A stretch of DNA of 64,000 bases from Myxococcota bacterium (GCA_023150835.1 JAKLKB010000003.1:46607-110606); one strand, 5' to 3'; positions 12,478 through 57,677 are shown, counted from the first letter of the stretch. Made by a program: numbers and translations. Notes: generated by a model from the letters alone, not told the origin.

Positions 12478-12592
12478 ACTCAGACGTCGGTTTGAAAAAA
12501 CGATGTTCTCTTCGCCTACACAGGGTCAAGGGAGCCGCGCTCTATGGCGGGGCGTGGGGCAGCGCCCCATACGCGCCTTGTTAAGGTGGAAA
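12478..12592 (-). repeat. Structured intergenic repeat family 1, copy E (5' leader of giant protein gene)
   Basis: Shares the blocks ggggcgctgcccc ... gcggctcccttgaccc(t/c)gtgt(a/t)ggcgaa.ag.acatcgtttttcaaacc.acg with five other copies. It is co-oriented with the gene downstream. Confidence 0.8.
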
Positions 12593-12825
12593 CCTCGTAG
12601 AGTCGGTCTTGATCGCCTTTTTTTTTCTCCCCCCCTCAATCCCCCCGGCCAACGGGGGGAAGTTGGAACGGGCAGCGTCTGCATCTCGTGCATACAGCGT
12701 GCGTCATGAAAAAACAAAATCCCCGATGCTTCCGACTTTCGCTCCTTCCCCTGTTCACGGGGGAGGGCGGGGTGGGGGGCTTTCCTCCGCTTCACCTAAC
12801 GCCTATGGGGCAGCGCCCCACAAAT

Positions 12826-12877
12826 CTATCCAACCCATCCAACCTATCCGACCTATCCGACATATCCAACTGCACCA
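12826..12877. repeat. Tandem octamer array (c/t)atccaacc / atccgacc, 5-6 units, in the divergent promoter region
   Basis: tatccaacccatccaacctatccgacctatccgacatatccaactg is seen directly. The array lies between the divergently transcribed giant protein gene and the lipoprotein gene at 13115. Confidence 0.7.
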
Positions 12878-13114
12878 CCCCGCAGCGGAAAAAAAATGAG
12901 AGCTTTTTTTTTCGCTTCGACAACCCTCCCCGAAAACGCGATCTGCTTTTGGGGATAGCCTCGCCCCACCAAAGCAAACCCCAATAACGGAACTTTTGCT
13001 ACACAAAATATTTCGTTATCATGGATTCGCTTATCTTCACTATCTGAGGCAAAAAAAAACTTTTTTCTTGCTAGAAAACGCGAATAGACTGGATCACCAA
13101 GAAAGGATTCTTCG

Positions 13115-14590
13115 ATGCAGACGAAGCGACTTTTTTATCTTTTGACGCTCCTTGGTCTGATGGCTGTCCCTCATCTGATGGTGTCGGGTTGTGCAAGTCC
13201 CCGTTGTGGCGATGGTATCGTTCAGAAGGATTACACCGACTCAAGCGGTGCGACTGTGACGGAAGAATGTGATGACGGAAACAGCGACAACACCGATGGT
13301 TGCACCAGTTCGTGCAAGCTGGCCGTCTGCGGGGATGGGTATATCCAAACAGGGGTGGAAGAGTGCGACAACGGCAGCAAAAATGCCGATGATGCGACGT
13401 GTACCAAGTCGTGCAAGATCGCCAAGTGCGGTGACGGCCTTGTCCAAAAAGGTGAAGAGTGCGACGACGGCAACACCAACAACAACGATGCTTGCCTCAA
13501 CACCTGCGTCAAAGCCACCTGTGGCGATGGCTTCGTTCAAAAAGATGTTGAAGAGTGCGATGACGCCAACAAAAACAACAACGATTCTTGTACAAACGCT
13601 TGCAAACTAAACGTCTGTGGGGACGGCTTTGTGCATATAGGTGTTGAAGCCTGTGACGATGGAAACCAAGAAGACACCGATGGTTGCACCAAGCTTTGCC
13701 GCCTTCCGACTTGCGGCGATGGCATCGTCCAAAAAGGCGAAGAGTGCGACGACGGCAACAACACCAACACCGATGCTTGCCTCAATACTTGCATCAAAGC
13801 CTCTTGTGGCGATGGTATCATCCAAGCCGGAACCGAAGAGTGCGATGACGCCAACAAAAACAACAACGACGGATGCACCAACACTTGCAAGATCGCCAAA
13901 TGCGGTGATGGTTTCGTCCAAAAAGATGTCGAAGAATGCGACAACGGCCCCAACAACAGCGACACAGGCTCCTGCACAACCGCTTGCAAAAAAGCCACTT
14001 GCGGCGACGGCTTTGTCCAACCGGGCGAAGAGTGCGACGACGGCCCGAACAACAGCAACACAGGCGCTTGTACGCTTGCTTGTAAAAAAGCCAAGTGCGG
14101 TGACGGCCTTGTCCAAAAAGGCGTCGAAGAATGCGACGACGGCAACACCAACGACGGGGATTGGTGCAACGCAACCTGCAAACGCGAGTGCATCCTTGGA
14201 AGCGCCAAAAAACTCGATGGCAACAGTTGTTATATGGCCTTTAACACCACGCTATCTTGGCGTGACGCAGCAGCCGCTTGTTCGATCGTCGGAGCGCACC
14301 TTGCCAACATCGGAAGCGCCGCCGAAAACACCCTTGTCACCGACTTGATCAAGACAGGCGCAGCCGCTTGGATCGGTTTGACCGATCAATACGGCGAAGG
14401 CACCTTTGTTTGGGACGAAGGCAAAAACCGCTATACCGCCCCCACCTTTACCAAATGGGCCGCCAACCAACCCGACAACAACCCGGGCGGCAACGCAAAC
14501 TGCGCGCAGATATCCACCACAGGCGACTGGTCTGACGAAGCCTGCACCCAACTCAAACCCTACGTTTGCAAATACACTTGGCCTCAATAG
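13115..14590 (+). CDS. Lipoprotein with about 9 Myxococcus cysteine-rich repeats and a C-terminal C-type lectin-like domain
   Basis: Signal peptide with a VSGC lipobox. Repeats of CGDGxVQxGEECDDGNxxNNDxCxxxC. The C-terminus WIGLTDQYGEGTFVWDEG...CAQISTTGDWSDEAC...YVCK matches the C-type lectin WIGL / WxD / Cys pattern. RBS AAGAAAGGA. Confidence 0.8.
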   Translation: MQTKRLFYLLTLLGLMAVPHLMVSGCASPRCGDGIVQKDYTDSSGATVTEECDDGNSDNTDGCTSSCKLAVCGDGYIQTGVEECDNGSKNADDATCTKSCKIAKCGDGLVQKGEECDDGNTNNNDACLNTCVKATCGDGFVQKDVEECDDANKNNNDSCTNACKLNVCGDGFVHIGVEACDDGNQEDTDGCTKLCRLPTCGDGIVQKGEECDDGNNTNTDACLNTCIKASCGDGIIQAGTEECDDANKNNNDGCTNTCKIAKCGDGFVQKDVEECDNGPNNSDTGSCTTACKKATCGDGFVQPGEECDDGPNNSNTGACTLACKKAKCGDGLVQKGVEECDDGNTNDGDWCNATCKRECILGSAKKLDGNSCYMAFNTTLSWRDAAAACSIVGAHLANIGSAAENTLVTDLIKTGAAAWIGLTDQYGEGTFVWDEGKNRYTAPTFTKWAANQPDNNPGGNANCAQISTTGDWSDEACTQLKPYVCKYTWPQ

Positions 14591-14646
14591 CGAAGATGCC
14601 CTCCCTCCGTTTTCAACAGTTTTGCTCCGCTGAGGAGGTTTTTTCC

Positions 14647-17600
14647 ATGAGGCGATTCATTCTTTCCATCATCGGCATCCTTTGGATCGCCATCGCAGCC
14701 ACTTCGTGCGGCCCCGGCCCGTACTGCGGCGATGGAATCCCCCAAGAAGGCGAAGAATGCGACGATGGCAACTCCATCAATACCGATGGCTGTACTGCGG
14801 CTTGCAAAAAAGCCGTATGCGGCGACGGTTACATCCAAAAAGGCGTCGAAGAGTGCGATGATGGCAACAAAAACGCCGATGACGCCGCTTGTTCCAAATC
14901 CTGCAAACGCTCTCTTTGTGGCGATGGCATCGTCCAAAAAGGCGAAGAGTGCGACGACGGCAACAAAAACAACAACGATGAATGTACCAACGCTTGCACC
15001 AAAGCCACTTGTGGCGATGGCATCGTCCAAAAAGGCGAAGAATGCGACGACGGCAACAAAAACAACAACGATGAATGTACCAACGCCTGCAAACTCAACG
15101 TCTGCGGTGATGGCTTTGTCTTCGTTGGTGTCGAAGAGTGCGACGATGGCAACAAAAACGATGGCGACGGCTGCTCGAATCAATGCAAAGGCAGTCGCTG
15201 TGGTGATGGTGTTGTCCAAGCCAACGAAGCCTGCGATGACGGCAACAAAAGCAACAACGACGCTTGCTTAAACAATTGCACAAAAGCCCGTTGTGGCGAT
15301 GGTATCGTCCATCTCGGCGTCGAGTTGTGCGATGACGGCAAAGACAACGGCCCCGGCAAAAAATGTACAGCCCAATGCACGCTCCCGACTTGCGGCGATG
15401 GCATCGTCCAAGCTGGCGAACAATGCGACGACGGCAACGCTTCCAACAACGACGCTTGCCTCAATACCTGCGTCAAGTCCTCCTGCGGTGATGGCTTTGT
15501 CCAACCGGGCGAAGAGTGCGATGATGGCAACAAAAACAACCACGACGGCTGCACCAACGACTGCAAGATCGCCCGTTGTGGCGATGGCATCGTTCAAATC
15601 GGTGTCGAAGAGTGCGATGATGGCAACAAAAACAACCACGACGGCTGCCTCAATACCTGCAAACGCGCTGTTTGTGGCGACGGTGTTGTGCGCGCAGGCA
15701 TCGAAGACTGCGATGACGCCAACCGCGATAACACCGATGGCTGCTTGATTAACTGTCGATCGTATGATCCATGCGCCAACTTTCAGATCGATCAACTACA
15801 ACCTGCCGTCGCTTGCGTGGGACTTGTGCCCAACCGCATCAAGATCCTTGGCGATGGCTTCTTGCGTATCGACGGAACCGATCCCACCGTTCGTTTCCAA
15901 GGCAACCCCCTCACGATCACCAGTCTTACACAATGCCAGCCCGAACAAGGCAACTTCTTGCGCATCGATCGCTGCAAAGAGATCGAAGTCGCCCTCCCCG
16001 CTGGCCTCGGCGCAGGGGCCTATCAAGTGGCCGTCACCAACGCCACCACCAAACAATGCGAAGCCAAGGCGATCTTTAGTGTTGGCCCTCGACCCACTAT
16101 CACCCAAGTCCGTCCCAACGAGACTTGCGAAGGCCGCTTGACCAGCTTTACTTTGCTCGGAACAGGCTTTACCCCAAGCACTCAAGTGACATTCCGTCGC
16201 GGTGGCAATACCTTTTCTCCCAACAGCTTCCGTTATGTCAGCGCCACCGAGATCGAAGTGATCTTTAACGCCCTTGATCCCGGACAATACGACGTCACCG
16301 TCTCCAACGGTGCGGGTTGTGATTCCACGCTACCGCTTGCAGTGACGGTCTACAAAAATCCCCTTGTCTTCTTTGTCGATCCCGAAGTGGCTTACAACCA
16401 GATCAGCCTTCAAGCGACACTCTACTTGACAGGACTCAACGGCCCGGGCGTCACCTTTGTCGGTATCCGCCGCAGTGGTTCAGGAGATCCCTTTACCAGC
16501 GTGTCCTTTACCTTTGACCCAAGCCGCCCAAGCAAAACGCTAATCGAGTTGCCCAAGAACCTCACCCCCGACGAATACGACGTGTTGGTGCGGGATGCCA
16601 AAACGTGCGAAAACACCCTTCCCAAGGGCTTTAAGGCAACCAACACCACGACGCTCTTTGTCAAAGCCATCGATCCGCCCTTTGGTTGGGCGCAAACCGA
16701 AACAGCCGTCACACTCACCTCCGAAAATCCAGCCCCCGCTGGCAAAGTTCCCTTTCAAAACGGCGTCCGTGTCTACCTCAGCCCAAGCACAGGAACAGGG
16801 CTTTCCTCACCGCTCAACGCGGTAGCCTTTGTCAAATCCACCGAAGTGACGGGCCTCGTCCCCAAACTTCCTGTCGGCGAATATGACGTTGTCGCCGTAA
16901 ATCCCGATGGAACAGTCGGTGTTCTACAAAAAGGCTTCCGCATCACCCAAGAAGCCCCTCCCGTCATCGCCAGCATCGCTCCCGGATCGATCCCCAACTC
17001 CAGCACCGAAACCGTGATCGTGCGTGGCCAAGGCTTCCGAACAGGAGCCACGGCCCAACTCGAATGTCGCGATCCTGCCGGAACGATCACCACACGAACG
17101 ATCCCCATCACCAACACCCAAAGCACTCAAGTCACGCTGTCTATCGCTTCGGGGATATCCGCAGGCTCCGTTTGCATCGTTCGCGTCACCAATACGGACG
17201 GAACCTACGGCGAATTCTCGGCGCTTGGTGTGACGAACCCCGCCGAAAATATCGGTGCGCCCAAGCTGTTGACCTCCAACCTTGTGACGGGACGCCGCGC
17301 CTTGGCCGCCATCTCAGGGCGTCCCACACTCAGCGCACGCTTTCTCTACGTCTTGGGTGGCGATACAGGAACCGTCGCAAACGCCCTTGATTCCGTCGAA
17401 GCCGCACCCGTCAACCGTTTCGGAGACGTCGGCGCATGGGCCGCCCTCCCCGTAAAACTTCCCAACCGACTGACCTTTGCCTCGGCCCAACGCATCGAAC
17501 GATTCATCTATATCGTCGGCGGAAACAACGGTGCATCAGCGCAAAACAAAGCCTACCGTGCCGAAGTCTTGCGCCCAAGCGATGCTCCGCAGATCCGCGA

Positions 17601-18660
17601 TGTCACCATCGAAGTGGATGACAATATCGGACTCGGCATAGGTTTATGGTACTATCGTGTCTCGGCTGTCATGGCGGCAAACGATCTCAACAACCCGAAC
17701 GGCGAAACACTTCCGAGCGAACCGCTACCGTTTAAACTTCCTGCAACGTTCTTGAAAAAAGTGCAGATCACCTTGCAATGGACCCCGATCACAGGAGCCG
17801 CCAAATACCGCATCTATCGCAGCCCCACTCCGAACCTGATCTCTGGTCAAGAACAACTGATCGGCGAAGTCAACGCACCGACCACCCAATACACCGACCG
17901 TAACGCAACAGCTACGGCTCCAATCCCTCGCCGCATCGGAGCCTTGGGCGAATGGATCACTCTCCCTGATCTGGGTGTTGCTCGCGAAGGATTGGGCCTT
18001 GGCCTTGGGCGCGATCCCAACAATGCAAACCTCTGGTATCTCTACGCCGTCGGAGGCCGCAACAGCACAACCGCCCACCGCAGCTACGAATACCTTTCGG
18101 TCACCCTCGACGCACAAGGCAATCAAACCGTCGGAGCTTCGTGGACTCAAGATGCAACGAACTTATTCGCACAAGGTCGCTGGCAAATGGCTGCTTATTC
18201 CGTAGATGAAGTCGCAACCACTCGCTACGGCAGCAACGAGACGTGGATCTACGCAGGCCCGGGCGCAAACCAAGCGGCAAACGCAGGAATAGGCGATGTC
18301 GATGCTGGAAAAGTCCAATCAGGCGGAAAACTGGGAACGTGGATCTCTGTTGACTCCGTCGGTGGGCAAAGTTGGACAGGCTACGGTTTTGCCGCTGTTG
18401 CCAACCAACTCTTCTTGTTCGGCGGACAGGGCTTTGCCCCAAGTGGTAGCGTCAACTCCGCCTTGCTTTGTGGGATCGGACTCGCCTGTGGGGGTGGAGC
18501 CTCTGATCCACCCGACCTTCGCAACTGGAACGCCGCCGGTGTCAGCCTCTCGACACCCCGCTACCTGATGGGAAGCATCCTCGAAAGCGGACACATCTAT
18601 CTCGTCGCAGGAGCCGTATCAAACGGCGTATCCAACACCCTCGAAAGTAGCGTGTGGTAG
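14647..18660 (+). CDS. Large lipoprotein: about 13 Myxococcus cysteine-rich repeats, IPT/TIG-like beta-sandwich domains and Kelch-like repeats
   Basis: The start at 14647 has a GAGGAGG RBS and a signal peptide with an ATSC lipobox. The repeat series is as in the upstream gene. Later come repeated beta-strand-rich modules and Kelch-like YVLGG/YIVGG/YAVGG/LFLFGG motifs. Confidence 0.75.
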   Translation: MRRFILSIIGILWIAIAATSCGPGPYCGDGIPQEGEECDDGNSINTDGCTAACKKAVCGDGYIQKGVEECDDGNKNADDAACSKSCKRSLCGDGIVQKGEECDDGNKNNNDECTNACTKATCGDGIVQKGEECDDGNKNNNDECTNACKLNVCGDGFVFVGVEECDDGNKNDGDGCSNQCKGSRCGDGVVQANEACDDGNKSNNDACLNNCTKARCGDGIVHLGVELCDDGKDNGPGKKCTAQCTLPTCGDGIVQAGEQCDDGNASNNDACLNTCVKSSCGDGFVQPGEECDDGNKNNHDGCTNDCKIARCGDGIVQIGVEECDDGNKNNHDGCLNTCKRAVCGDGVVRAGIEDCDDANRDNTDGCLINCRSYDPCANFQIDQLQPAVACVGLVPNRIKILGDGFLRIDGTDPTVRFQGNPLTITSLTQCQPEQGNFLRIDRCKEIEVALPAGLGAGAYQVAVTNATTKQCEAKAIFSVGPRPTITQVRPNETCEGRLTSFTLLGTGFTPSTQVTFRRGGNTFSPNSFRYVSATEIEVIFNALDPGQYDVTVSNGAGCDSTLPLAVTVYKNPLVFFVDPEVAYNQISLQATLYLTGLNGPGVTFVGIRRSGSGDPFTSVSFTFDPSRPSKTLIELPKNLTPDEYDVLVRDAKTCENTLPKGFKATNTTTLFVKAIDPPFGWAQTETAVTLTSENPAPAGKVPFQNGVRVYLSPSTGTGLSSPLNAVAFVKSTEVTGLVPKLPVGEYDVVAVNPDGTVGVLQKGFRITQEAPPVIASIAPGSIPNSSTETVIVRGQGFRTGATAQLECRDPAGTITTRTIPITNTQSTQVTLSIASGISAGSVCIVRVTNTDGTYGEFSALGVTNPAENIGAPKLLTSNLVTGRRALAAISGRPTLSARFLYVLGGDTGTVANALDSVEAAPVNRFGDVGAWAALPVKLPNRLTFASAQRIERFIYIVGGNNGASAQNKAYRAEVLRPSDAPQIRDVTIEVDDNIGLGIGLWYYRVSAVMAANDLNNPNGETLPSEPLPFKLPATFLKKVQITLQWTPITGAAKYRIYRSPTPNLISGQEQLIGEVNAPTTQYTDRNATATAPIPRRIGALGEWITLPDLGVAREGLGLGLGRDPNNANLWYLYAVGGRNSTTAHRSYEYLSVTLDAQGNQTVGASWTQDATNLFAQGRWQMAAYSVDEVATTRYGSNETWIYAGPGANQAANAGIGDVDAGKVQSGGKLGTWISVDSVGGQSWTGYGFAAVANQLFLFGGQGFAPSGSVNSALLCGIGLACGGGASDPPDLRNWNAAGVSLSTPRYLMGSILESGHIYLVAGAVSNGVSNTLESSVW

Positions 18661-19011: not shown

Positions 19012-20679
19012 ATGAGCATCAATAACATCCGTCAAAACAGTGCTTTTTCTTCTGCCTTCCAAGGTGCGATGGGACAAGGGATCCAGTCGTGGGGAGCCTC
19101 CTTCTCCACTTCGTCCGTTTCAAAAAGTGGTGCGTCTGCCGAAGGAAACCAAGGCGCAACGGGCGCAGCAGCCGCAGCATTCGCACAATTTCAAAATAAC
19201 AGCTTTGGCGCTTTTGCAACCTCGGCTTCTTTCGGACAAGGCGCGCTCAACCTCGACAAACAGGGCTTTTTGAATAAACCCGAAGCCGCTGGACAAGCCG
19301 GTGGACTCGGCCAAGCCATGAAAAGCCTTGAACAACTTTCCAAGTCCGTCGATCAACTTTGGAACCAAGTGACGGGCGGCAAAGGTGCAGAAGGTGGCAA
19401 AGGTGCAGAAGGCGGACAAGCCGCACCACAAATGCCGACATTCGCAGGCCCCCAAGCTCCCGCCGCTCCCGCTGGTGGCCCCCAAGCTCCCGCCGCTCCC
19501 GCTGGTGGTCCCCAAGCCCCCGCCGCTTCTGCTGGTGGTCCCCAAGCCCCCGCAGGCGCTCCCCCCGCAGCGGGCGACCAAGGCGTGGCTCCAACCACAG
19601 ACAAAGGAGCCAACGAAAACAAAGGCCTCGGCGAAACACTCCAAAAAGCCTTCCAACAGATCTTCCAACAGATCAATCAGATGATGGATCTCCTCAAAAA
19701 CATCACCAAGATGGCCCAAGAAGCCAACCGTCCCCAAGCCCCCGCTGGTGCGGGCGGCGCAGGTGGTGAGGGAGCCGAAGGCGAAGAAGGCGCGGGCGGC
19801 GCGGGTGGCGCGGGTGGCGGCGGTGGCGCTGGCAAAGCCGGTGGCGGCGGTGGCGCTGGCAAAGCCGGTGGCGGCGGTGGCGCTGGCAAAGCCGGTGGCG
19901 CTGGCAAAGGCATGGATGCCCGAAACGCCAACGCAAAAGTTCCCATGAAACAAGCCCAAGCCCCACGCCCTCGCGGTTCTGACGCAGCCGCAAAAGCACA
20001 AGGAGCCGGTGGCGCACAAGGAGCAGGCGGCGCACAAGGAGCAGGCGGCGCGGGCGATGTCAAACAAGTCGTTGGCGATGCAATGAAAAAACTGGCCGAC
20101 AAATTGGGCGACAAGATCGGAAACAAAGTCGGAGCCAAGATCGGCGCAGAAGTCAGCAAAGCCTTCGGAAAAGAAACAGGCGAAGCCGTCCAAAAAGCGG
20201 TCAGCCAAATGATCGACAAAGCCGTCGAGCAAGTCATGGGCAAAGCCATCGACAAGATGCTCAACCCCCAAGCCAACGGCGAGGCACCCGCTGCTGCTGG
20301 CGCTGGACAACCCGCCGCTCCTGCTGCTGGCGCTGGTCAACCCGCCGCTCCTGCTGCTGGCGCTGGTCAACCCGCCGCTCCTGCTGCTGGCGCTGGTCAA
20401 CCCGCCGCTCCTGCCGCTGGACAACCCGCTGCTCCCGCTGGATTCGCACAGCAACCGACCCAAGCAGGCAATCCTCCCCAAGATATCGCCAAGATGCTTG
20501 AAGGACTCGCCAAAGAGATCGAAGGACTCAGCAAACAGATCGGTGAATTCGCGGACAAGACCTTCGGAAAAGATGTGGGCGCGACTTCCCAACAAGCCGC
20601 CGGAGCCGCCCTCGATCAAAACGTCCAACAAAGCGTCAGCTTCGCCGCTTTCAGCGCCTTCCAAACCTTCCAAGCCTAA
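19012..20679 (+). CDS. Low-complexity Ala/Gly/Gln/Pro-rich protein with several perfect in-frame tandem repeats (disordered, function unknown)
   Basis: Good AAGAGGGA RBS and no signal peptide. 3x GGPQAPAAPA, 3x GGGGGAGKAG and 4x GAGQPAAPAA repeats are encoded by perfect 27-30-bp DNA repeats. Both termini are Phe/Ser/Gln-rich. Confidence 0.65.
   Translation: MSINNIRQNSAFSSAFQGAMGQGIQSWGASFSTSSVSKSGASAEGNQGATGAAAAAFAQFQNNSFGAFATSASFGQGALNLDKQGFLNKPEAAGQAGGLGQAMKSLEQLSKSVDQLWNQVTGGKGAEGGKGAEGGQAAPQMPTFAGPQAPAAPAGGPQAPAAPAGGPQAPAASAGGPQAPAGAPPAAGDQGVAPTTDKGANENKGLGETLQKAFQQIFQQINQMMDLLKNITKMAQEANRPQAPAGAGGAGGEGAEGEEGAGGAGGAGGGGGAGKAGGGGGAGKAGGGGGAGKAGGAGKGMDARNANAKVPMKQAQAPRPRGSDAAAKAQGAGGAQGAGGAQGAGGAGDVKQVVGDAMKKLADKLGDKIGNKVGAKIGAEVSKAFGKETGEAVQKAVSQMIDKAVEQVMGKAIDKMLNPQANGEAPAAAGAGQPAAPAAGAGQPAAPAAGAGQPAAPAAGAGQPAAPAAGQPAAPAGFAQQPTQAGNPPQDIAKMLEGLAKEIEGLSKQIGEFADKTFGKDVGATSQQAAGAALDQNVQQSVSFAAFSAFQTFQA
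20311..20430 (+). repeat. 4x perfect 30-bp coding tandem repeat (cccgccgctcctgctgctggcgctggtcaa)
   Basis: Seen directly. Similar 30-bp (about 19450-19560) and 27-bp (about 19810-19900) arrays occur in the same gene. Confidence 0.85.
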
Positions 20680-20723
20680 GACGAAATCCGCCCTTTTCTT
20701 TACACGAGCGAAACAGCCCGATA

Positions 20724-20835
20724 GAGGGGCGCTGCCCCTCACCCCGCAAGGGAGCTTTGCCCCCTTGAACCCGTGTTGGCGAACAGAACATCGTTTTTCA
20801 TACAAACGACGCTCTCGCTTGAACGTCCGAAAACA
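20724..20835 (+). repeat. Structured intergenic repeat family 1, copy A (between low-complexity gene and D-aminoacylase gene)
   Basis: gaggggcgctgcccctc hairpin, caagggagc...cccttga hairpin, and ccgtgttggcgaac ... gcgaacacgg-type long-range complement. It is co-oriented with the downstream gene. Confidence 0.8.
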
Positions 20836-20982
20836 TGGGGACTTCTGCACCCTGCGTTACTCACCCAACACCATCCCACATCCCCCCATATCCCGCTTTC
20901 TCCCTCTTGACATCACCCCTCCACAAAAAGCAAAACAAGACAAGCATTTGGATCAACCGCGATCTTCAAAGAGAGGGCAAGG

Positions 20983-22701
20983 ATGTTCGATATCGTGATT
21001 CGCAATGGGTATATCGTCGATGGTACGGGCGCTTCGGGCCGCGTGGTGGATATCGCCATCGAAGGCGAAAAGATCGTCGCGATGGGTGCAGCGTTGGGGC
21101 CGGGAAAGCGTGAGATCGATGCAACGGGGTTTTTGGTGACGCCGGGCTGGGTGGATATGCACACCCATTACGACGGGCAAGTGACATGGGACCCTTATTT
21201 GACCCCCTCAAGCGAACACGGCGTGACCACCGTCGTGATGGGTAATTGCGGCGTGGGTTTCGCTCCCTGCCGCAAAGAAGACCGTGAATGGCTGATCAAC
21301 GTCATGGAAGGCGTCGAAGATATCCCGGGATCCGCTCTTTCCGAAGGCATCAAGTGGTCATGGGAAACCTTTCCCGAATACATGGACGCTCTCGCAGGCG
21401 AAAAGCACGCGATCGACTTCGGAACGCAGATCCCCCACAGTGCCTTGCGCGGCTGGGTCATGGGCCAAGACAGTTCCGAACAAGACGACGCCACCCCCGA
21501 ACAGATCGAAGCGATGCGCAAGCTCGTCACCGAAGCCCTTCAGGCGGGCGCATTGGGCTTTTCCACTTCGCGCACTTCACTTCATCGCACCGCCAAAGGG
21601 GTCTTGGTCGCCGGCACAAACGCCAAACGCGACGAACTCTTTGGGATCGCACAAGCCCTCAAAGAAACGGGCCTTGGGGTCTTTGAGTGCGCAAGCGAAC
21701 ACCTTTCTGTCCCCGAAGAATTCTTGTGGATGCGCGAGATGGCGCAAACCATCCAACGCCCCGTAGTTTTCAATCTCTCTCAAACCGATCAAGCCCCCCA
21801 TCTTTGGCGTCATCTGCTTGAAACGCTCGAAGATGCCGAACAAAAAGATATCCCTGTTTACGGCCAAGTCGCAGGACGCGCCATCGGCATCGTCATGAAC
21901 TGGCAAGCCACCGTTCATCCGTTCGTTTCCTATGAAGCGTGGATGCAGATCATGCAACAGCCTTGGGAAGTCAAACGCAAGCGCGTCATGGACCCTGCCT
22001 TCAAAGCAGAGCTACTCGCCCAAGAACCTTATGATCTGTGGGAGTTTGCCAACTTCGTCACTCGTTCGTTTCACAAGATGTTTCCGATGAAAGATGGTTC
22101 TTCCTACGAGCCCGACATCAGCGAAAGCGTTGCCGCACGCGCCAAACGAGAAGGCCGCTCTCCCAAAGAGATCGCCTTCGAGATGTTGATGGAAAACGAC
22201 GGCAACGGGATGATCTACTTTCCGCTGTTCAACTACACCGACAACAGCCTCGATCACCTCCACACCCTCCACAGCCACCCACGAACGCTGATGGGCCTTA
22301 GCGATGGAGGCGCCCACTGTGGCGCGATCTGTGACGCAGGGATGCCCACCTTTATGCTGACCCATTGGACCCGCGACCGCAAACGCGGCGAAAAACTCTC
22401 GCTCGAATACATGGTGATGCGCCAAACCAGTCAAACAGCCCGATTCTACGGCCTTGAAGATCGCGGTGTCCTTGCCCCGGGATACCTCGCCGATATCAAC
22501 ATCATCGACTACGACAACCTCCGCCTTGGCGTCCCCCAAGTCGTCTATGATCTCCCTGCGGGCGGAAAACGCTTGCTTCAACACGCCACAGGTTACAAAG
22601 CCACCCTCAAAAGCGGACAAATCATCCTCCAAGACGGCCAACCCACGGGCGCTTTGCCCGGAAAACTTATCCGTGGATCTCAACCCGCCCCCCACAAATA
22701 A
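20983..22701 (+). CDS. N-acyl-D-amino-acid deacylase (D-aminoacylase), amidohydrolase superfamily
   Basis: The N-terminus MFDIVIRNGYIVDGTG...TPGWVDMHTHYDGQVTWDP is the characteristic D-aminoacylase metal-binding start (HxH). Length 572 aa. RBS GAGAGGG. Confidence 0.85.
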   Translation: MFDIVIRNGYIVDGTGASGRVVDIAIEGEKIVAMGAALGPGKREIDATGFLVTPGWVDMHTHYDGQVTWDPYLTPSSEHGVTTVVMGNCGVGFAPCRKEDREWLINVMEGVEDIPGSALSEGIKWSWETFPEYMDALAGEKHAIDFGTQIPHSALRGWVMGQDSSEQDDATPEQIEAMRKLVTEALQAGALGFSTSRTSLHRTAKGVLVAGTNAKRDELFGIAQALKETGLGVFECASEHLSVPEEFLWMREMAQTIQRPVVFNLSQTDQAPHLWRHLLETLEDAEQKDIPVYGQVAGRAIGIVMNWQATVHPFVSYEAWMQIMQQPWEVKRKRVMDPAFKAELLAQEPYDLWEFANFVTRSFHKMFPMKDGSSYEPDISESVAARAKREGRSPKEIAFEMLMENDGNGMIYFPLFNYTDNSLDHLHTLHSHPRTLMGLSDGGAHCGAICDAGMPTFMLTHWTRDRKRGEKLSLEYMVMRQTSQTARFYGLEDRGVLAPGYLADINIIDYDNLRLGVPQVVYDLPAGGKRLLQHATGYKATLKSGQIILQDGQPTGALPGKLIRGSQPAPHK

Positions 22702-22924: not shown

Positions 22925-23015
22925 CATCAAACCAAACAAAACATCAGACAACATCGCCGTTCACCCTTTCTCAGAGAAAAATACTTTTTGATTCGATCAG
23001 ACTTACTCGGATCGT

Positions 23016-23140
23016 TTTGTGGGTCATTGCCCCACACCCCACAAGGGAGCTTTGGCCCTTTGACCCCGTGAGAGGCGAAAAGAGCAAAGGTTTTTCAAAC
23101 CAACGACGGTGTCGCTTGAACCTCCGCGAACACGGAGTTT
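23016..23140 (+). repeat. Structured intergenic repeat family 1, copy B
   Basis: gttttgtgggtcattgccccacaccccacaagggagctttggccctttgaccccgtg...caaaccaacgacggtgtcgcttgaacctccgcgaacacgg. Confidence 0.8.
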
Positions 23141-23403
23141 TGTCAACCGCGTCATCCAGATGACCCGATCTGCTCTGGGCGCTTCGCCCCTACAACAAAA
23201 AGCACACCACATCTCAAAAAAACAAAAAAGAATCAAAAGGCAAAGCACTTATCAGACACGGATTGTTTTTTCTGCGTTGGTTTGCGCTTCGGTATCGGAG
23301 GGCTGTATGCCATGCAAAACGGCAAACAAAAAAGAGAGTGTATGCGAAAACATACATATCGCCTATTCCGAGAGATCGTCTGCTTTGGGGGCTGTTGAGG
23401 CGA

Positions 23404-24717
23404 TTATCCAGCGCGCTCCGCTTCGGCCATCGCCATCATCACCAAAGTTGCCGCGATCAATGGGATATTTTTGGTGAGTGGGCCAAAGGGATGCACCCAA
23501 AACGACGGGCTCCCGTACGTCAAGATCCCCATAAATCCAAACATCAACAAAAGCTGCAAAGCCCCCATCCATCGGAGCCGAAACCCGATCGCGGTGCAGA
23601 TCCCCAAAACGATCTCGAGATAACTCGTCCCATACAACGCGATCTTTGCAAGGATGCCCGTCAAGCCAACGCCCGCAAGCAACTTGAGGCTCTCTTGTTC
23701 GGGGTAGATCCAAGCCGAGACGATGCCTGTTGCGATCCAGATGAACGCCACAGACCACTGCACAACAAGACGCAACGGTGTTAAATAAGCTGCCCATCGG
23801 GCTTCTACGCTGCGCGGCCTGCGAGAGATCCCCAATGCAAACGGCATCGGTGAAAAACCAAAGATCTGCACAAACCGCGTGTTGTCACAATGATTGCCCC
23901 GCAACAACATACCCAATTCATCGCGTGATATCGGACCTCTTCCGCCAAGCAGATCGGTGATCCAAGCCAGCACGCTCATCCACCACAACGGCAGATGCAG
24001 CCGAAACGCGCCGTTGTTTTTTCCCAACCAGACAGCCAAGGTGTCCAACATCGCGTTAAAAGAAAGCGCCTCCGCTCCGCCTACATCCACCGCAACATCC
24101 GCGATATCGTCGTCTTCAACGGCTCGCGTGATGGCGCTGACCAGATCTTCCACATGGATCGGTTGCACAAGGTACTCTCCATCCCCAACCACGGGCGTCA
24201 CAGGCAGCGCAGCCAACGAAGTAAAAAAAGTCATCGAGTGATCTTGCGGGCCGTACACAAAGGACGGACGCAACACAACGTAGGGGATCCCCAAGCTCGC
24301 AAGATGCTGATCTGCGGCGCGTTTGCTTTGGTGGTAGTGACTTTTGGCCCCTTCATCCGCCCCCAACGCGCTAAGTTGAATGATCTTTTTTATACCCGCC
24401 TGTTTTGCCGCATCAAAAAACGCGATCGGAGCGGCCTGATGCAAGATATCAAATCGCGCCTCACCTTGTTCGCGGATGATCCCCACAAGGTTGATCGCGA
24501 TATCATGGCCTTGCAAAGAGTTCGCCCATGCGGCGGGTTGCGCAAATTCCCCCGCCACACACCGCACGCCCGACCACTGCATCTGCTCGACCCATCCGAC
24601 TTGCTTTCCCCGCAACAACACCGTCACTCGATGGCCCCGTTTCGATAGCGCTTCCAACACATGACGACCGATAAATCCGCTTCCACCCGTTAGAAAAATC
24701 GTCTTTCCTTCTGGCAT
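23404..24717 (-). CDS. Atypical SDR NAD(P)-binding epimerase/dehydratase-like domain fused to C-terminal DoxX-like membrane domain
   Basis: The start MPEGKTIFLTGGSGFIGRHV has a GAGGG RBS and a TGGxGxxG Rossmann motif. The C-terminal ~130 aa form 3-4 TM helices typical of DoxX. Confidence 0.7.
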   Translation of the reverse strand: MPEGKTIFLTGGSGFIGRHVLEALSKRGHRVTVLLRGKQVGWVEQMQWSGVRCVAGEFAQPAAWANSLQGHDIAINLVGIIREQGEARFDILHQAAPIAFFDAAKQAGIKKIIQLSALGADEGAKSHYHQSKRAADQHLASLGIPYVVLRPSFVYGPQDHSMTFFTSLAALPVTPVVGDGEYLVQPIHVEDLVSAITRAVEDDDIADVAVDVGGAEALSFNAMLDTLAVWLGKNNGAFRLHLPLWWMSVLAWITDLLGGRGPISRDELGMLLRGNHCDNTRFVQIFGFSPMPFALGISRRPRSVEARWAAYLTPLRLVVQWSVAFIWIATGIVSAWIYPEQESLKLLAGVGLTGILAKIALYGTSYLEIVLGICTAIGFRLRWMGALQLLLMFGFMGILTYGSPSFWVHPFGPLTKNIPLIAATLVMMAMAEAERAG

Positions 24718-24856
24718 CACACCCTCGCTCTTCGTTCCCAAAAAATGCGCTTGACGTCCACAGCCAGATGCTGCAACTCTTCCCATGACGCGCCAAAAGA
24801 CCATACATCGCTTTGTCTTTTTTCAATAGGACACAACGGGCAAGGAATTCTTTGAC

Positions 24857-25333
24857 ATGACTTCTTTCTATTTGCTTTTAAAAACCATCCATATCCTCGC
24901 AGCAACCTTGTTTTTCGGCACAGGATTAGGGAGTGCTTTTTTTAAGTTCCGCGCCGATCAAAGCGGAAAGATCGAGGATATCGTGTTTGCACAAAAGAAT
25001 ATCGTCCTTGCAGACTGGCTTTTCACCATCCCTTCGGGGATCTTGCTTCCCCTGACGGGTTTGTGGATGGTTTGGTATCTCGGTATCCCACTAACAACAC
25101 CTTGGATTATGGCGGGCCTTGGGCTGTATGCGCTTGCGGGCCTTTGTTGGGTGCCTGCCGCCTTGATGCAGATCTGGATGCGTGAAGCCGCCCTCCACGC
25201 CCAAGCCACACAAACGCCCCTCCCACCGCGCTATCACACATGGGCCTTGTGGTGGCTTCTGCTCGGCTTCCCTGCTTTTGGAGCGTCCGTTTGGACCATC
25301 TACATCATGGTCTCCAAACGTTTCCCTTGGTGA
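24857..25333 (+). CDS. Small integral membrane protein (DUF2269-like, 4 TM)
   Basis: 158 aa with four hydrophobic helices. The family assignment is from memory only. Confidence 0.55.
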   Translation: MTSFYLLLKTIHILAATLFFGTGLGSAFFKFRADQSGKIEDIVFAQKNIVLADWLFTIPSGILLPLTGLWMVWYLGIPLTTPWIMAGLGLYALAGLCWVPAALMQIWMREAALHAQATQTPLPPRYHTWALWWLLLGFPAFGASVWTIYIMVSKRFPW

Positions 25334-25610
25334 AAAATCGCCCAACACACAGATATCTCGCTTTTTCCGCCGCCCCCATACTCCCCAAGTACTTTCCTTG
25401 GGGCCTCAAAAGCACGTTTTTTCCCCTCCTGCGTATATCCCCGCAAGCCCGCTCTCCCCTTTTCTCACCTCTCGCAAAGGAGCCTTGATGACCCCTCACA
25501 ACACACGCCCCCTGTCCTCTACAACCTCCGCCCTAGAAACCAAACAAAGTACAAACAAAGTTTGTTTTTTTCATGGCATCACTTCTATTTGGACTGATGC
25601 AGTTAAATGG

Positions 25611-25735
25611 TTTTGTGGGGTTCCACCCCACACCCCGCAAGGGAGCGCGGCTCCCTTGACCCCGTGTTGGGCGAACAGGTCACTGTTTTCCAAACCAACG
25701 ACGCTCTCGCTTGGATGGGTGCGAACACGGCTTTT
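25611..25735 (+). repeat. Structured intergenic repeat family 1, copy C
   Basis: This is the most canonical copy: ggttttgtggggttccaccccacaccccgcaagggagcgcggctcccttgaccccgtgttgggcgaacag...caaaccaacgacgctctcgcttggatgggtgcgaacacggc. Confidence 0.85.
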
Positions 25736-26315
25736 TTTGGGCCGACTGCGTCGCTCCTATTCAATATTCATCCCTTGTCTTTTTTCTTTATTCGCTTTTT
25801 TTATCTGTTTCCTTGAAGATCCTGCGCCATCCTACGCGTCTTCCGTCACGTCTGCTCGTCTTCGGTGTTGGCCGATCAAAAAAAACCACAAAAGCGGGCG
25901 TATTGAAGTCACTTGGAGCCATCATTGCGCAGGAGGCCGAACTTGCAGCAAAAGAATCGATATCACGCTGCAACTCAACAGGAAATGGTACAACGAAAGC
26001 ATCGATTATCCGACGTATCCCGCTCAAAAAAATGGGGTTCAGTCCGAGGCTTTTGGGTGTTGGAAGTCCAAAAAGAAGTACTTTCGTTATCGCTTTACGC
26101 GCTGGGGAAAACGGCGGATCAGTATCGAGATCTCTCCCGAGCGTAATGAGTACAAATTGCGTCTGCATATCAGACGAAAACACCCGATCCAAACGGGCGG
26201 CTGGTTGGGAGGGTTGCGCTGTCAAATCCACCACCGCGCACTGACGTTTCGTCGCTGTCCCCCACAGCCACCCTCGCCGCGTTAAGTATCGCTGCTCTCA
26301 AAAGAAAGGTATCTC

Positions 26316-26786
26316 ATGCGAAATCAATGGTTGACCCTCATCGGCCTTGGGTGCTTGGGGCTTTTTGCAGCCTGCGAAAAAAAAGAACCCGATCATCTTT
26401 GGTTGCGCGGTAATGCAACGCAACGAATCCTCACTCTTGCCAAGCACCACCGAGGGAACGACGTGGTGATGATGGAAGTGCGTTACCGCCACGAACAACT
26501 CTACCTTGCGATCCAAAGCAAGAACACAAATTATGCGATGTATCAGCTCAACAAAATAGAGAACGTCATGCGACACGGCGCAGAACGTCGCCCAAAAAGA
26601 AAGAAATCCTATGATTGGTTCTTTCAAACCGCCCTCCCGCCGATGAAAGCCAGTCTGGAGAAAAAGTACCAACCTGATATCGCCTTCCAGCAGTTCACTG
26701 CTCAGTGCATGGCTTGCCACATCAAAGAAAAGCTGCCCTACATCCCCGTCCCACAGCCTTGGGAAAAGCGCCGACTCCCCCCTTGA
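26316..26786 (+). CDS. Class II c-type cytochrome (cytochrome c'-like) lipoprotein
   Basis: Signal peptide with an LFAAC lipobox. A single CxxCH (CMACH) lies near the C-terminus of a ~130-aa helical protein, which is the cytochrome c' / c-556 arrangement. Confidence 0.55.
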   Translation: MRNQWLTLIGLGCLGLFAACEKKEPDHLWLRGNATQRILTLAKHHRGNDVVMMEVRYRHEQLYLAIQSKNTNYAMYQLNKIENVMRHGAERRPKRKKSYDWFFQTALPPMKASLEKKYQPDIAFQQFTAQCMACHIKEKLPYIPVPQPWEKRRLPP

Positions 26787-28329: not shown

Positions 28330-28374
28330 CCCATATTCCTTTCTTCTGTATAAATAGAAGTGACGCAGTTTCCA

Positions 28375-28500
28375 AAAAAGCCGTGTTCGCGAACGCCCAA
28401 GCGAGAGCGTCGTTGGTTTGAAAAACGATGCTCTGTTCGCCAATACAGGGTCAAGGGGGCAAAACTCCCTTGCAGGGCGTGGTACCTCGCCCCACAACGC
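28375..28500 (-). repeat. Structured intergenic repeat family 1, copy D (46 nt upstream of SUKH start)
   Basis: The reverse complement reads ggcgttgtggggcgaggtaccacgccctgcaagggagttttgcccccttgaccctgtattggcgaacagagcatcgtttttcaaaccaacgacgctctcgcttgggcgttcgcgaacacggc. Confidence 0.85.
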
Positions 28501-28536
28501 CATTCAACCTCGTCCATCCTATACAAATGTCGCTTT

Positions 28537-37039: not shown

Positions 37040-37040
37040 C

Positions 37041-46529: not shown

Positions 46530-46583
46530 CTCTCAACCTTCCTTTCACAACCCTTCCAGTCCTTCGGTCATCCATTCCTTCGG

Positions 46584-46650
46584 TTTTGTGGGGCGTTGCC
46601 CCCTACGGAACCCCACTCTCTTGACCCCGCGTAGGCGAACCAAACCATGC
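46584..46650 (+). repeat. Structured repeat family 1, partial copy F (5' half)
   Basis: ggttttgtggggcgttgccccctacgg...ctcttgaccccgcgtaggcgaaccaaacc. It lies 177 nt upstream of the TPR gene. Confidence 0.6.
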
Positions 46651-46826
46651 CCCTACAAGACTCCTGTCGGTTGTCTGCGATCTCCTTCTTGTTCTTCATC
46701 TGCCGACACCACGCAGCCAAAACACCGCCGAATCCGACAGAAGTGGGGCTTGGTCTTGTCAAAGCCTGTCCTCGAAACTATGCTTGCGGGCGGACTCTTT
46801 TGGTAGGGCAAAGGAGAAACGATCAC

Positions 46827-47792
46827 GTGGCAGAATACATCTCGATCCACAAAGAAGACCCCGATGAAGCAAGACTTTATGAACTAATCCCGATGATCCA
46901 GTACGCGATTGAACGAGGGGCCTTGTGTCAAGCGTGGTGGGAACTTCGCCGAGTCCTCGAAACAGCCCCCATGAGCAAAACGGGGCTGTTGTTGCTCGAT
47001 CGGCTGCTTGCCGAGATCGGCGGAGACTCCGAAGGGATCTTTCGCCTGTGCGGAAAAAAACACACACAAATCGACGTTGCGCTTCACGCTTATGCGCTCG
47101 GTGCAGCCGGCCAATACAACAAAGCGCTGTATTTATTATGCGAATTAGCCCGACTCGACCCAACGCGCCCCTTGCTTGCGTGGGCATGGCGTTGGCTTCC
47201 TCCTCAACCCACCCTCCAACCCGAAACGCTCTATCCTCCGCTCTATCACGCCATCCAAATATGCCGCGCCCAAGAAGCCGATGCTTCGGCCTTTTGGCTC
47301 CAACTGCTCGCGCTTAGCAAACTCATCCACCAATCCGATCCAACCGCGCTTTTGTGGCTCTACCTTCGCGCAGAGGCCGCACGCGAGATCGGCGATCTGC
47401 TACTGGCCCAAACTCTGGCCTTAGAACTCCGCAGCTACGGATGGACGGCTGAAAGCTTTGTCCTCCAAGCCCGCAACTGCGAAGCCGAAGCCCACCTCGA
47501 AGAAGCCACCCAACACTACCAAGCCGCACTCCGCTCTCACCTCCATCACCCCGATATCTACGCAGAGATCATCGCCTATCTTCTCCAACGCGATCGGTGG
47601 GAGGAAGCTCAACAACATCTCCGCCAGCTTTTGCACGAACACCCCTATCATCCGCACGCATTGGCTTTGTTCTTCTGGGCTTCTTATCGCCAAACCCCCA
47701 GCGGGGAGTGGTCGCAAAAGCTGACTTGCCTCGCTCGCGCCTACCCCCACGATCCGGCCATCCAACACATTCAAGATCACCTTCTCACCTAA
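46827..47792 (+). CDS. TPR-like helical repeat protein
   Basis: A GTG start is preferred because it has an AAAGGAGAAA RBS. The ATG at 46647 would overlap repeat copy F. The protein consists of Leu/Ala/Trp-rich helix pairs. Confidence 0.5.
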   Translation: MAEYISIHKEDPDEARLYELIPMIQYAIERGALCQAWWELRRVLETAPMSKTGLLLLDRLLAEIGGDSEGIFRLCGKKHTQIDVALHAYALGAAGQYNKALYLLCELARLDPTRPLLAWAWRWLPPQPTLQPETLYPPLYHAIQICRAQEADASAFWLQLLALSKLIHQSDPTALLWLYLRAEAAREIGDLLLAQTLALELRSYGWTAESFVLQARNCEAEAHLEEATQHYQAALRSHLHHPDIYAEIIAYLLQRDRWEEAQQHLRQLLHEHPYHPHALALFFWASYRQTPSGEWSQKLTCLARAYPHDPAIQHIQDHLLT

Positions 47793-56900: not shown

Positions 56901-57178
56901 GGGGACAAGAAAACTGGCTTGCGCAGATCCGTTGGAGTTGGTATGCCCGCATCCTCGGACCTCAGACCTCCTTTACTGTGCTGGAAAATCAAGCCCAATG
57001 GGAAGCCTTGCGCCGAAAACAACAGCAAGTCCTCGCAGGAAAAAGCTTTTTCGATCTGACCGAAGACGAAGGACCACGCCGTGCGGATGAACCGCCGCTC
57101 GGAGGGTTGGTGCTGTTGTTGGGGATGTTCTTCTTCTACTTTCTGCGCAAAACACGCAAAGCGCGGTCCCAGAATTAA
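53876..57178 (+). CDS. Giant polytopic membrane protein with S/P/T-rich repeat linker, large C-terminal globular domain and PEP/MSEP-CTERM-like terminal sorting signal
   Basis: About 10-12 TM helices in the first ~440 aa. 3x perfect SPPRSPQSTVAST repeats. A ~500-aa domain. The final residues ADEPPLGG-LVLLLGMFFFYFL-RKTRKARSQN give a motif, TM helix and basic cluster. The start at 53876 is coupled to the mini-exosortase gene. Confidence 0.65.
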   Translation: MNVPTQPHLEPAEPSRQLDLQSSNHPYWLLLSLTLPQVLLWLAFFYQYILIQSLLSDKSKGYWADYGMLIGAGIVGSIFVACFFRYKRHPLPAWLAPLLLFGYIGLLYFSIKDMPQLLPFNIPQWMSQREELSLLPFAFTMPVLFHALLMLIAYFTPNQDETASFPNFFYALLIPLIWYFFIQILVPYLRTKTYLSERLFLIFFICTTVCFFFFLLRGVLLALRKNQKTSRYAPFWRLLIALILPLAGLVTYNARSLFGMRGMHTPQIVGELSHPLFYLCAILAAGALLAPSPLLPRARLALFSLRMVVYPYTLFFFVIFLPFLPLSLLAILVMGLGFLMLAPTLLMILHSRTLAEEWRALRLHYRTTLLGLVAVLSFFAVPSGILTYLFQERATLHRALAYLYQPDHLRVQAPDIYPALLRNSIDALRQHHQRRRGRRFVIADEKRVPFLTSLYKSIVLDNMTLSQNKINELSQTFLGNTSPSQTTTARLFRPNRASPSASLQPIPPQTTAISPHQSRSPQSTVASTSPPRSPQSTVASTSPPRSPQSTVASTSQPNVKIAQPSPASASKMFTPSPSVSTQTALSATRPTSATAATASPHAATQPTVAAAQPAFRITTPKITHLQTSTHYDPTIHAYKSTILLRITNYGTWQQEFSTSFQIPLGVWASAYALWIDGKKVDGALTEKKATLWVYQQIVRARQDPGLLYYEDATTLRLRVFPVLARETRQTSFTLLHKAPFSFQIGASTHHLDDSRVLSRMQRPIERLWGDHLLFFPHEQKAKLPTLTRKPYLHAILDCSQGRKSHYALYIEQIRKLHQRYNLDPTHTRVTFANYQAHTSAWSADLLQHLESYPAQGGLFLVRVLKRIYLEHATQARDSFPVVVVLTPRIQDAILKQRLQGVPFLSPDAASFYSLNPQDRFTRHSLYGPLRDQEIQNTDPATFQPFSLGTVRTWPDAQHPRVFLRNDGQDSLVLRVPYVAQMPPTALPNDPWQAGLAIYGRWLLQQLRLGGQENWLAQIRWSWYARILGPQTSFTVLENQAQWEALRRKQQQVLAGKSFFDLTEDEGPRRADEPPLGGLVLLLGMFFFYFLRKTRKARSQN
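55429..55545 (+). repeat. 3x 39-bp perfect coding tandem repeat (ctctccccaaagtaccgtcgcttcgacctctcctccgcg)
   Basis: Seen directly. It encodes RSPQSTVASTSPP units in the linker of the target protein. Confidence 0.85.
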
Positions 57179-57202
57179 GCTTGGGTCGGCCCCCCCCTCA
57201 TT

Positions 57203-57448
57203 CCCCCCGGCCAACGGGGGGAAGTTGGAGCAGGCAAAGACGCACCCGCAGAAGTCGTACCTGCAAGAGAGACCACAGCGGCCAACGGGGGGAAGTTGGA
57301 GCAGGCAAAGACGCACCCGCAGAAGTCCAAGTGTTCGGGAACCGCCCGTGTATCGGGACATCGAGCAGCGAACGGACACGCTCACACAACCACAGAAGTT
57401 TACGTAGGGGCGGTTCGCGAACCGCCCGTGTATCGGGACATCGAGCAG
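57203..57448 (+). repeat. Intergenic direct-repeat cluster upstream of the Clp ATPase gene: 2x 48-bp unit (period 71) and 2x 30-bp unit
   Basis: ggccaacggggggaagttggagcaggcaaagacgcacccgcagaagtc occurs at 57209-57256 and 57280-57327. gaaccgcccgtgtatcgggacatcgagcag occurs at 57339-57368 and 57419-57448. The ccccccggccaacgggggg hairpin also occurs at 12636-12660. Confidence 0.8.
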
Positions 57449-57677
57449 TGTTGTCTTTCCGACAGCACAGACGAAGTGTCCGAGTGTTCGGGGTGGGGGG
57501 CCAACCATCGCTTAACAAGGCGCGTATGGGGCGTCGCACAACGACGGGGTGAGGGTGAAACGAACATGGGAGGCCCTCTGGGTACTTGCCAGAACAAGCG
57601 AACCTGCGCAAGATCCATCCGTCCATAAGGCCCGCACCGATCGACCCGACGGATGCGCCCATCTTCACGGAGTTTGG

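Follow-up and report, generated by a model that had tools for sequence, protein, structure and literature searches.

A family of dispersed intergenic repeats occupies the non-coding DNA of a 64,000-nt stretch from a Myxococcota bacterium (GCA_023150835.1, JAKLKB010000003.1:46607-110606; the whole stretch is called the window here, with coordinates counted from its first letter). The whole element is ~165 bp long and consists of a non-coding core of ~125 nt, which contains two GC-rich hairpins, several conserved blocks and a T-run, together with terminal inverted repeats of ~16 nt (TAGGACTTACGCAGTT / AACTGCGTAAGTCCTA). We consider it probable, at about 0.6, that the family represents an ancient, now inactive and non-autonomous element similar to miniature inverted-repeat transposable elements (MITEs), spread by a transposase that recognised the 16-nt ends. 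The broader statement that we are dealing with a selfish dispersed repeat, and not with a gene-linked regulator, is very probably correct. An earlier sequence-only reading of the window had preferred a cis-regulatory RNA and had named a MITE or a repetitive extragenic palindromic (REP) element as the alternative. It is this alternative that gains support from the shared inverted ends, the high copy number within one clade, a near-random orientation, reversals at orthologous sites, the absence from a more distant relative and a neutral-like divergence.

To search for the family, we built a profile (nhmmer) from the five window copies and applied it to the window and to related loci, which are cited by their L numbers where needed. 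Exactly five full copies (A to E) were recovered in the window with E-values between 1e-34 and 1e-40. A degenerate core pattern of 28 nt, with a chance expectation of 0.01 in the window, matched exactly the same five sites, and each of them reads as a clearly related sequence of ~130 nt. The sequence-only reading had listed six copies plus a fragment. Its five full copies are confirmed and the partial one at 46582-46640 is a real 5' half (copy F), but the fragment at 57508-57545 does not belong to the core. The motifs that it quoted, i.e. the GGGGCGCTGCCCC / GTGGGGTTCCACCCC hairpin, CAAGGGAGCGCGGCTCCCTTG, the CCGTGTT...AACACGG pair and TTTTTCAAACCAACGACG, were all found by reading the copies. 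Its perfect second hairpin exists as well, although it is located in the copy at 25611 and not in the one at 23016. The limits given for the element were too short, as conservation runs ~22 nt further on each side and into the terminal inverted repeats.

These ends became apparent when 76 copies were anchored on the core. The 5' flank gave the consensus ATAGGACTTACGCAGTT-GGATGG-TTTTGTGGGG and the 3' flank CACGG-TTTTTTTGG-CAACTGCGTAAGTCCTAT. When up to 4 mismatches in 14 nt were accepted, 27 of the 76 copies had a recognisable 5' end, 24 a recognisable 3' end and 16 had both. The length of complete elements is constant at 160-167 bp. In the alignment, the copies are separated from each other by frame-breaking indels, which argues against a coding function.

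The same ends are found in a second repeat family of 112 bp with an unrelated interior, the two families having ~20 nt in common at each end. A copy in L017 (5658-5773) carries perfect 16-nt inverted repeats, and further copies are located in L009 (5554-5669), L020 (~1-67), L024 (~1-131) and L059 (~11960-12075). The interior of this family holds a GTAG-headed palindrome (GTAGGGGCGGTTCGCGACCCGCCC). In L009 and L024, the 112-bp copy lies directly beside a copy of the main family with TCAGA between them. Two unrelated interiors with the same ends suggest that one transposase mobilised both families. In addition, short direct repeats border the best-preserved elements immediately beyond the terminal TA (TCTAAA/TCTAAA, TAAGA/TAAGA, TCTGA/TCAGA and TTAGGA/TTGGGA, for example). 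As a mark of target-site duplication, which would then be 5-6 bp long, these repeats are only suggestive.

The family is very abundant, yet confined to one species-level clade. Scanning one genome per species (185,579 species) with the core pattern resulted in 56 contig stretches of a single metagenome-assembled genome, Myxococcota bacterium KLAP109, and in two matches in Paenibacillus that are likely due to chance. In a separate scan of 241 million metagenome records, 59 contigs matched, all of them from one JGI sample (Ga0154020); of those that could be aligned to the earlier loci, most were 98-99.9% identical to KLAP109 or L059. With the profile, 75 near-full copies were detected in KLAP109 (0.40 Mb searched) and 69 in the JGI sample (0.27 Mb). 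Many of the copies are positioned at contig ends, as expected of repeats that break assemblies. A literature search on MITEs in Myxococcota returned nothing relevant and no description of the family.

The claim that every copy is co-oriented with its downstream gene is true in the window but nearly empty. In a divergent region, any copy is in sense orientation to a downstream gene, and in a convergent region none can be, so that only tandem regions are informative. This leaves copies B, D and E, as A and F are located in divergent regions and C in a convergent one. For a larger set, we collected 80 copies with at least 100 matched profile positions from the window and 56 KLAP109 loci and called genes with an iterated dicodon model, which largely agrees with the supplied gene calls. 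Of 61 window and KLAP109 copies, 38 share their strand with the downstream gene and 23 do not. Tandem regions contained 16 co-oriented and 9 opposed copies, which is not significant, while 15 copies were found in divergent and 11 in convergent regions. Taken together, this corresponds to a roughly random intergenic placement. Many copies are located 14-50 nt past the stop codon of an upstream gene that has their orientation.

The downstream genes are functionally unrelated to one another. Based on Pfam, the neighbours in the window encode a giant MopE/Ig-repeat protein (A), an amidohydrolase (B), an epimerase/DoxX protein (C) and an M10 peptidase together with a SUKH protein (E), and a DUF2269 gene is located upstream of copy D. 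The gene labels cytochrome c' and TPR, which had been assigned earlier, found no support in Pfam.

Three relatives span the region of the window: KLAP109 (L053, nucleotide identity ~91%), GCA_963852895.1 (L059, ~93-95%) and the more distant GCA_964267905.1 (L060, ~81-86%). The close relatives share copies A, D and E, with unchanged orientation and 91-95% identity (A in L059 at 1653-1780; D in L059 at 15845-15977 and in L053 at 2350-2482). At site C, the element is reversed between conserved flanks in both L053 and L059, and at site B, L059 contains a reversed copy beside the 3' remnant of a forward copy. In L060 none of the five sites is occupied, although the same genes are present: the amidohydrolase gene follows ~18 nt after the upstream gene at site B, and the SUKH gene 4 nt after the peptidase gene at site E. 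The gene downstream of copy D (26316-26786) falls in a 694-nt segment that is absent from L053 and L059. The reversals, the absence in L060 and the missing segment indicate that neither the position nor the orientation of the element relative to genes is conserved.

Paralogous copies show a mean identity of 74% (26% difference) and nearest neighbours of 84%, values that indicate an old family. All four haplotypes were observed in 751 of 903 pairs of variable columns. The copies are therefore mosaic, pointing to recombination or gene conversion among them or to several source lineages. The majority base is found in 80-91% of the copies in the core blocks and in 56-60% in the inverted ends. At their sites, the copies drift as neutral DNA does: a comparison of the window with L059 gave 91.2% identity for orthologous cores and 93.0% for other intergenic DNA, compared to 85-91% for third codon positions and 95-100% for first and second positions. 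The family appears to be inactive at present.

To analyse the pairing, we counted base pairs in an alignment of 78 copies using the structural model of the sequence-only reading plus two inner helices. Hairpin 1 (GTGGGG...CCCCAC) was paired in 91% and hairpin 2 (CAAGGGAG...CTCCCTTG) in 85%. A 5-bp helix (GGCGA/TCGCT) reached 96%, with seven double changes that all occur in one divergent subfamily, and the inner stem 49.5%. For the long-range stem we obtained 74% pairing and zero compensatory changes, with two positions being mismatched in about half of the copies. Consequently, the statement that changes between copies preserve pairing holds only for the two 5' hairpins; besides these, the 5-bp helix alone stays paired. 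The unit as a whole is made of two different hairpins and ~70 nt of non-palindromic conserved sequence; it is no doublet of one palindrome.

Further analyses addressed the RNA level. An Rfam search of the window at gathering and at permissive thresholds returned no family and only chance matches, the best of them being CyVA-1 with 21 bits against a threshold of 41. Single-sequence folding z-scores were weak (-2.0 to +0.3). RNAalifold found almost no consensus in the full alignment of 78 sequences (-3.5 kcal/mol); in a trimmed alignment both strands fold, the G-rich reverse strand even better, and the strand is thereby not identified. The non-Watson-Crick cells of the proposed strand comprise 59 G·U versus 130 A·C, and as G·U is not in excess, the counts give no sign of RNA being read from this strand. 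Behind the closing arm of the long-range pairing, whose stem encloses ~55 nt, most copies have a T-run. Only one of the five window copies, copy C, passed a simple terminator scan, with a canonical-like hairpin and a T-run.

Based on these data, the most probable history of the family is a MITE-like one. The inverted ends would have been recognised by a transposase encoded elsewhere, which would have dispersed the element over intergenic DNA. This spread would have taken place in the ancestor of one Myxococcota clade, comprising the genome of the window, KLAP109 and GCA_963852895, and would postdate the split from the lineage of GCA_964267905. By now the family appears to have become inactive: the copies are fixed, most of them lack one or both ends, and their mosaic sequences suggest recombination or gene conversion. 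Effects on neighbouring genes would be incidental and local, such as a stem plus T-run acting as a terminator, and not the reason for the family to exist. What the sequence-only reading had expected of a simple MITE, namely random orientation, no covariation and target duplications, is largely what was found; the exception is that the two hairpins keep their pairing.

Several observations weigh against this history. The core is better kept than the ends, which is the main observation that a plain decaying MITE fails to predict, and inverted ends are missing from about half of the copies, A and B of the window among them. The signal for target duplications is modest and ambiguous in length (5 versus 6 nt): in a permutation test, direct repeats located 2 nt outside the GGAC...GTCC ends gave p ~0.003 for 5 or 6 nt, but only in two of 28 settings and for 17 elements, three of which are orthologous duplicates. 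In ~0.8 Mb of related loci, neither an autonomous element nor a transposase with these ends was found. The flanks in L060 are too diverged to define clean empty sites, and strains with ~99% identity showed no difference between filled and empty at ~30 sites; mobility therefore has to be deduced historically. Finally, something keeps the palindromes. At the apical pair of hairpin 1, 37 copies have C-G and 36 have U-A, on many loop backgrounds, and hairpin 2 also contains some compensatory changes. Such kept palindromes fit hairpins at the DNA or RNA level as in many MITEs and REPs, and they could also originate from template-directed repair within palindromes.

A core that outlasts its ends would also be found in a palindromic module similar to REP or BIME, which is spread or maintained via its hairpins, for example by a REP-associated tyrosine transposase (RAYT) or by recombination between copies. 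The inverted ends would then be secondary and the core captured inside a MITE shell in a third of the copies. Besides the core conservation and the many copies without ends, this unlikely explanation could account for the extensive mosaicism, for the pairing being retained precisely in the two hairpins and for the occurrence of the core in at least three different 5' contexts. Units of a GTAG head and a palindrome are indeed found in the same genomes (GTAGGGGCAGCCCCCTGTGGCTGCCC at window positions 34147 and 37117; GTAGGGGCGGTTCGCGAACCGCCC at 57404-57427, with a near-identical unit inside the 112-bp family). It is difficult to reconcile, however, with the best copies being bounded precisely by the inverted ends at a constant 163-167 bp, with the ~20 nt per end common to the main and the 112-bp family and with a 125-nt unit that is neither a simple palindrome nor an inverted REP doublet. 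In addition, no RAYT gene turned up, though none was searched for. Alternatively, a repeat of mobile origin may have been domesticated, its core now acting at many loci as terminator, stabiliser of mRNA 3' ends or protein-binding site. The location of many copies shortly behind co-oriented stop codons, the T-run after the long-range closing arm, the terminator-like hairpin of copy C, the compensatory changes in hairpins 1 and 2 and the 84-91% conservation of the core blocks among paralogues are all in agreement with such a role. We nevertheless regard it as improbable: divergence between orthologous copies is as rapid as in other intergenic DNA, copy E has a broken hairpin 1, four of the five window copies did not pass the terminator scan, half of the copies have uncompensated mismatches in the stem preceding the T-run, the tandem orientation (16:9) is not significant, and B and C flip between relatives without a visible change in gene order. 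In a related version, which we rate as quite unlikely, the ~125-nt core would be an exapted functional module retained by the host or by the element lineage, i.e. a terminator, an RNA-stability element or the binding site of some protein, with the hairpins kept by selection and the inverted ends as a dispensable delivery shell. The switch from C-G to U-A on many loop backgrounds fits selection on the hairpins, and an exapted core would explain both its conservation above the ends and the several terminal contexts.

The least probable explanation by far is the one preferred by the sequence-only reading, a gene-linked cis-regulatory RNA acting as a 5' leader or in a riboswitch-like manner on the downstream gene. 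It starts from the window copies lying on the strand of their downstream gene, wherever there is one, and from the retained pairing of the two hairpins. But the genes concerned are functionally unrelated, 23 of the 61 downstream genes are on the opposite strand and 11 copies lie between convergent genes. Furthermore, B and C are reversed in close relatives, the five sites are empty in L060 next to the same genes, the copies diverge in place in a neutral-like manner and the family does not extend beyond one species-level clade. The missing Rfam match, the weak folding z-scores, the uncompensated long-range stem and the G·U count of 59 against 130 A·C likewise speak against an RNA.

Pairs of inverted ends at a distance of 300-4000 bp were inspected as candidates for an autonomous element. 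Those in L009, L070 and L071 turned out to be neighbouring MITEs, and the pair in L002 encloses no recognisable transposase open reading frame (ORF); the pair in L024 (139-2844) was left out of this examination. An insertion sequence (IS) in L061/L062, which belong to a distant relative, was rejected as parent because its ends are unrelated; the PF01609 transposase in L061 was the only one seen. In L070 (129-1204), two inverted copies of the main family flank an ORF of 194 aa (374-958, minus strand). This arrangement resembles a composite transposon and could have arisen by chance.

Copy D is the best-preserved copy and the only one in the window with convincing ends. It extends over 167 bp on the plus strand (25591..25757, core 25606-25738, E=1.1e-39) and is bounded by the inverted repeats GGACTGATGCAGTT (25591-25604) and GACTGCGTCGCTCC (25744-25757). 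Hairpin 1 is located at 25615-25631, hairpin 2 at 25638-25658, the arms of the long-range pairing at 25660-25668 and 25724-25730 and the T-run at 25732-25738. An ORF of 367 aa (25182-26285, plus strand) reads through the copy. Its counterpart in L059 (15727-16509) is called as a gene, but amino-acid identity (88%) is lower than nucleotide identity (93%) and the product is unlike the L060 gene at that position. The 367-aa ORF is probably spurious, a by-product of the repeat. An in-frame insertion into a gene, as known from Rickettsia palindromic elements, was rejected for copy D. The 694-nt segment next to it (26262-26954), which contains the downstream ORF (26316-26786, 156 aa, no Pfam match) and a copy of a third repeat family, represents a strain-specific insertion or deletion, as it is absent from L053 and L059.

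The other four full copies are less well preserved at their ends. Copy A (12444..12602, minus strand, core 12448-12578, E=1.4e-34) lies in the divergent region between the MopE/Ig-repeat gene (5009-12469, minus) and a DUF4215/lectin gene (13115-14590, plus). Its 3' inverted repeat is unrecognisable and the 5' one is replaced by a variant end, CTCTACGAGGTTTCCACCTTAA-CAAGGCGCG (12565-12602), which also occurs in L030, L020 and L019 and defines a subfamily with a different 5' end. Copy B (20719..20863, plus strand, core 20719-20846, E=1.8e-39) has no 5' inverted repeat and a weak, degenerate 3' one (CCCTGCGTTACTCA, 20850-20863); it is situated between the stop of the gene at 19012-20679 (plus) and the amidohydrolase gene (20983-22701, plus). 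In copy C (22999..23158, plus strand, core 23011-23143, E=4.5e-39), both inverted repeats are degenerate (AGACTTACTCGGAT, 22999-23012; AACCGCGTCATCCA, 23145-23158). It is placed between the convergent amidohydrolase (plus) and epimerase/DoxX (23404-24804, minus) genes and has no co-oriented downstream gene. Degenerate inverted repeats are also found in copy E (28357..28519, minus strand, core 28373-28504, E=1.2e-40; 5' GGATGGACGAGGTT, 28506-28519; 3' AACTGCGTCACTTC, 28357-28370), in which hairpin 1 is disrupted. This copy is found between the stop of the M10 peptidase gene (28537-31068, minus) and the start of the SUKH/SMI1 gene (27814-~28335, minus).

The degenerate 5' half F (46582..46640, plus strand, E=2.5e-6) corresponds to profile positions 5-71, including hairpin 1, a remnant of hairpin 2 and the GGCGAA block, and directly adjoins the start codon of the gene at 46647-47792 (plus) in a divergent intergenic region. 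Fragment G (57511..57533, plus strand) reproduces 23 nt (CTTAACAAGGCGCGTATGGGGCG) of copy A's variant 5' end without a mismatch. Another repeat ends in front of it (CAGACGAAGTGTCCGAGTGTT, 57468-57488), and the junction recurs upstream of the L019 copy at 6997-7123 (minus strand). As a copy of the family it was rejected, since the profile gives no match and the core is missing. The repeat end CAGACGAAGTGTCCGAGTGTT forms an inverted pair at a distance of ~600 bp in L059 (11855-11890 / 12455-12480). The whole intergenic region at 57210-57533 is built of repeats, including a ~63-nt tandem duplication (ggccaacggggggaagttggagcaggcaaagacgcacccgcagaagtc), two copies of aaccgcccgtgtatcgggacatcgagcag and a perfect 20-nt palindrome (GGGCGGTTCGCGAACCGCCC, 57408-57427).

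The third dispersed family mentioned above is ~120 bp long and is present in the window at 34118-34237 (plus), 37032-37161 (minus) and 26812-26932 (plus). It reads ...ATCCGCC..GTGTGATCG..GTAGGGGCAGCCCCCTGTGGCTGCCC... and shows a REP-like GTAG head and palindrome. BLAST searches in the related loci yielded 25 matches each for the copies at 34118 and 37032 and 8 for the one at 26812; in KLAP109, this family is often found just after copies of the main family. L059 carries an insertion of 1.2 kb after the amidohydrolase gene (11711-12937) that is absent from the window. It includes the 112-bp family, G-rich tandem repeats of GGGGGTGA (~8 units) and tandem repeats of TTTGTCTTTTG, and an ORF of 197 aa (12568-13161) overlaps its downstream end. 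Beside copy A, two adjacent genes for DUF4215-repeat proteins (13115-18660), one with a C-type lectin domain and the other (1354 aa) with TIG and Kelch motifs, adjoin the gene for a MopE/ASH/Ig-repeat protein of 2486 aa on the opposite strand, forming a cluster of giant secreted or adhesin-like proteins.

The main value of these results lies in annotation. Besides giant adhesin-like genes, these uncultured Myxococcota have intergenic DNA crowded with repeats of several families, which break assemblies, make long spurious ORFs (25182-26285) and can pass for regulatory RNAs. The family, its inverted ends and the 112-bp sister family provide a clade marker and a handle for finding the transposase that spread them. 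A new biological question is opened only if the conserved core proves functional.

Among known systems, Rfam families of cis-regulatory RNAs and small RNAs resemble the element only in being intergenic and containing hairpins, and none of them reaches its gathering score in the window. More is shared with REP/BIME/REPIN elements and their RAYT: GC-rich intergenic palindromes, mosaic modules, vertical persistence at fixed sites and occasional terminator-like roles, and GTAG-headed palindromes as in REP are also found in these genomes. In contrast to them, the element is 125-165 nt long, combines two different hairpins with non-palindromic blocks and has classical inverted ends in the best copies. 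Host roles such as terminator, mRNA stabiliser or protein-binding site have been described for REP/BIME, ERIC and Correia elements. With IS-derived MITEs such as RUP of Streptococcus pneumoniae and the Tn3-derived TIMEs, which generate 5-bp duplications, the family has in common the small size, the inverted ends, the non-coding intergenic nature and the occurrence of two unrelated interiors with common ends. In contrast to these MITEs, no recent activity was seen here among the ~99%-identical strains, and without an identified parent IS the family cannot be placed among them. To our knowledge, its ends resemble neither the GGGG-tipped 38-nt ends of Tn3 nor others.

Correia elements of Neisseria (CREE/NEMIS) are non-coding intergenic repeats of 100-160 bp with many copies, inverted ends, stem-loops and short target duplications. 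They are found in both orientations beside genes, for which they can incidentally act as promoter or terminator. Their inverted repeats are ~26 nt long, the duplication is TA and the copies are much more uniform. The element described here agrees with them in its many short intergenic copies, the inverted ends, the internal stem-loops and the placement in either orientation to genes. It differs in sequence, in having inverted repeats of ~16 nt and a possible duplication of 5-6 bp, in the decay of the ends in most copies and in its restriction to one uncultured Myxococcota clade. With no sequence relationship to any of them, the family appears to work like the bacterial MITEs of the Correia, RUP, ERIC and TIME type.

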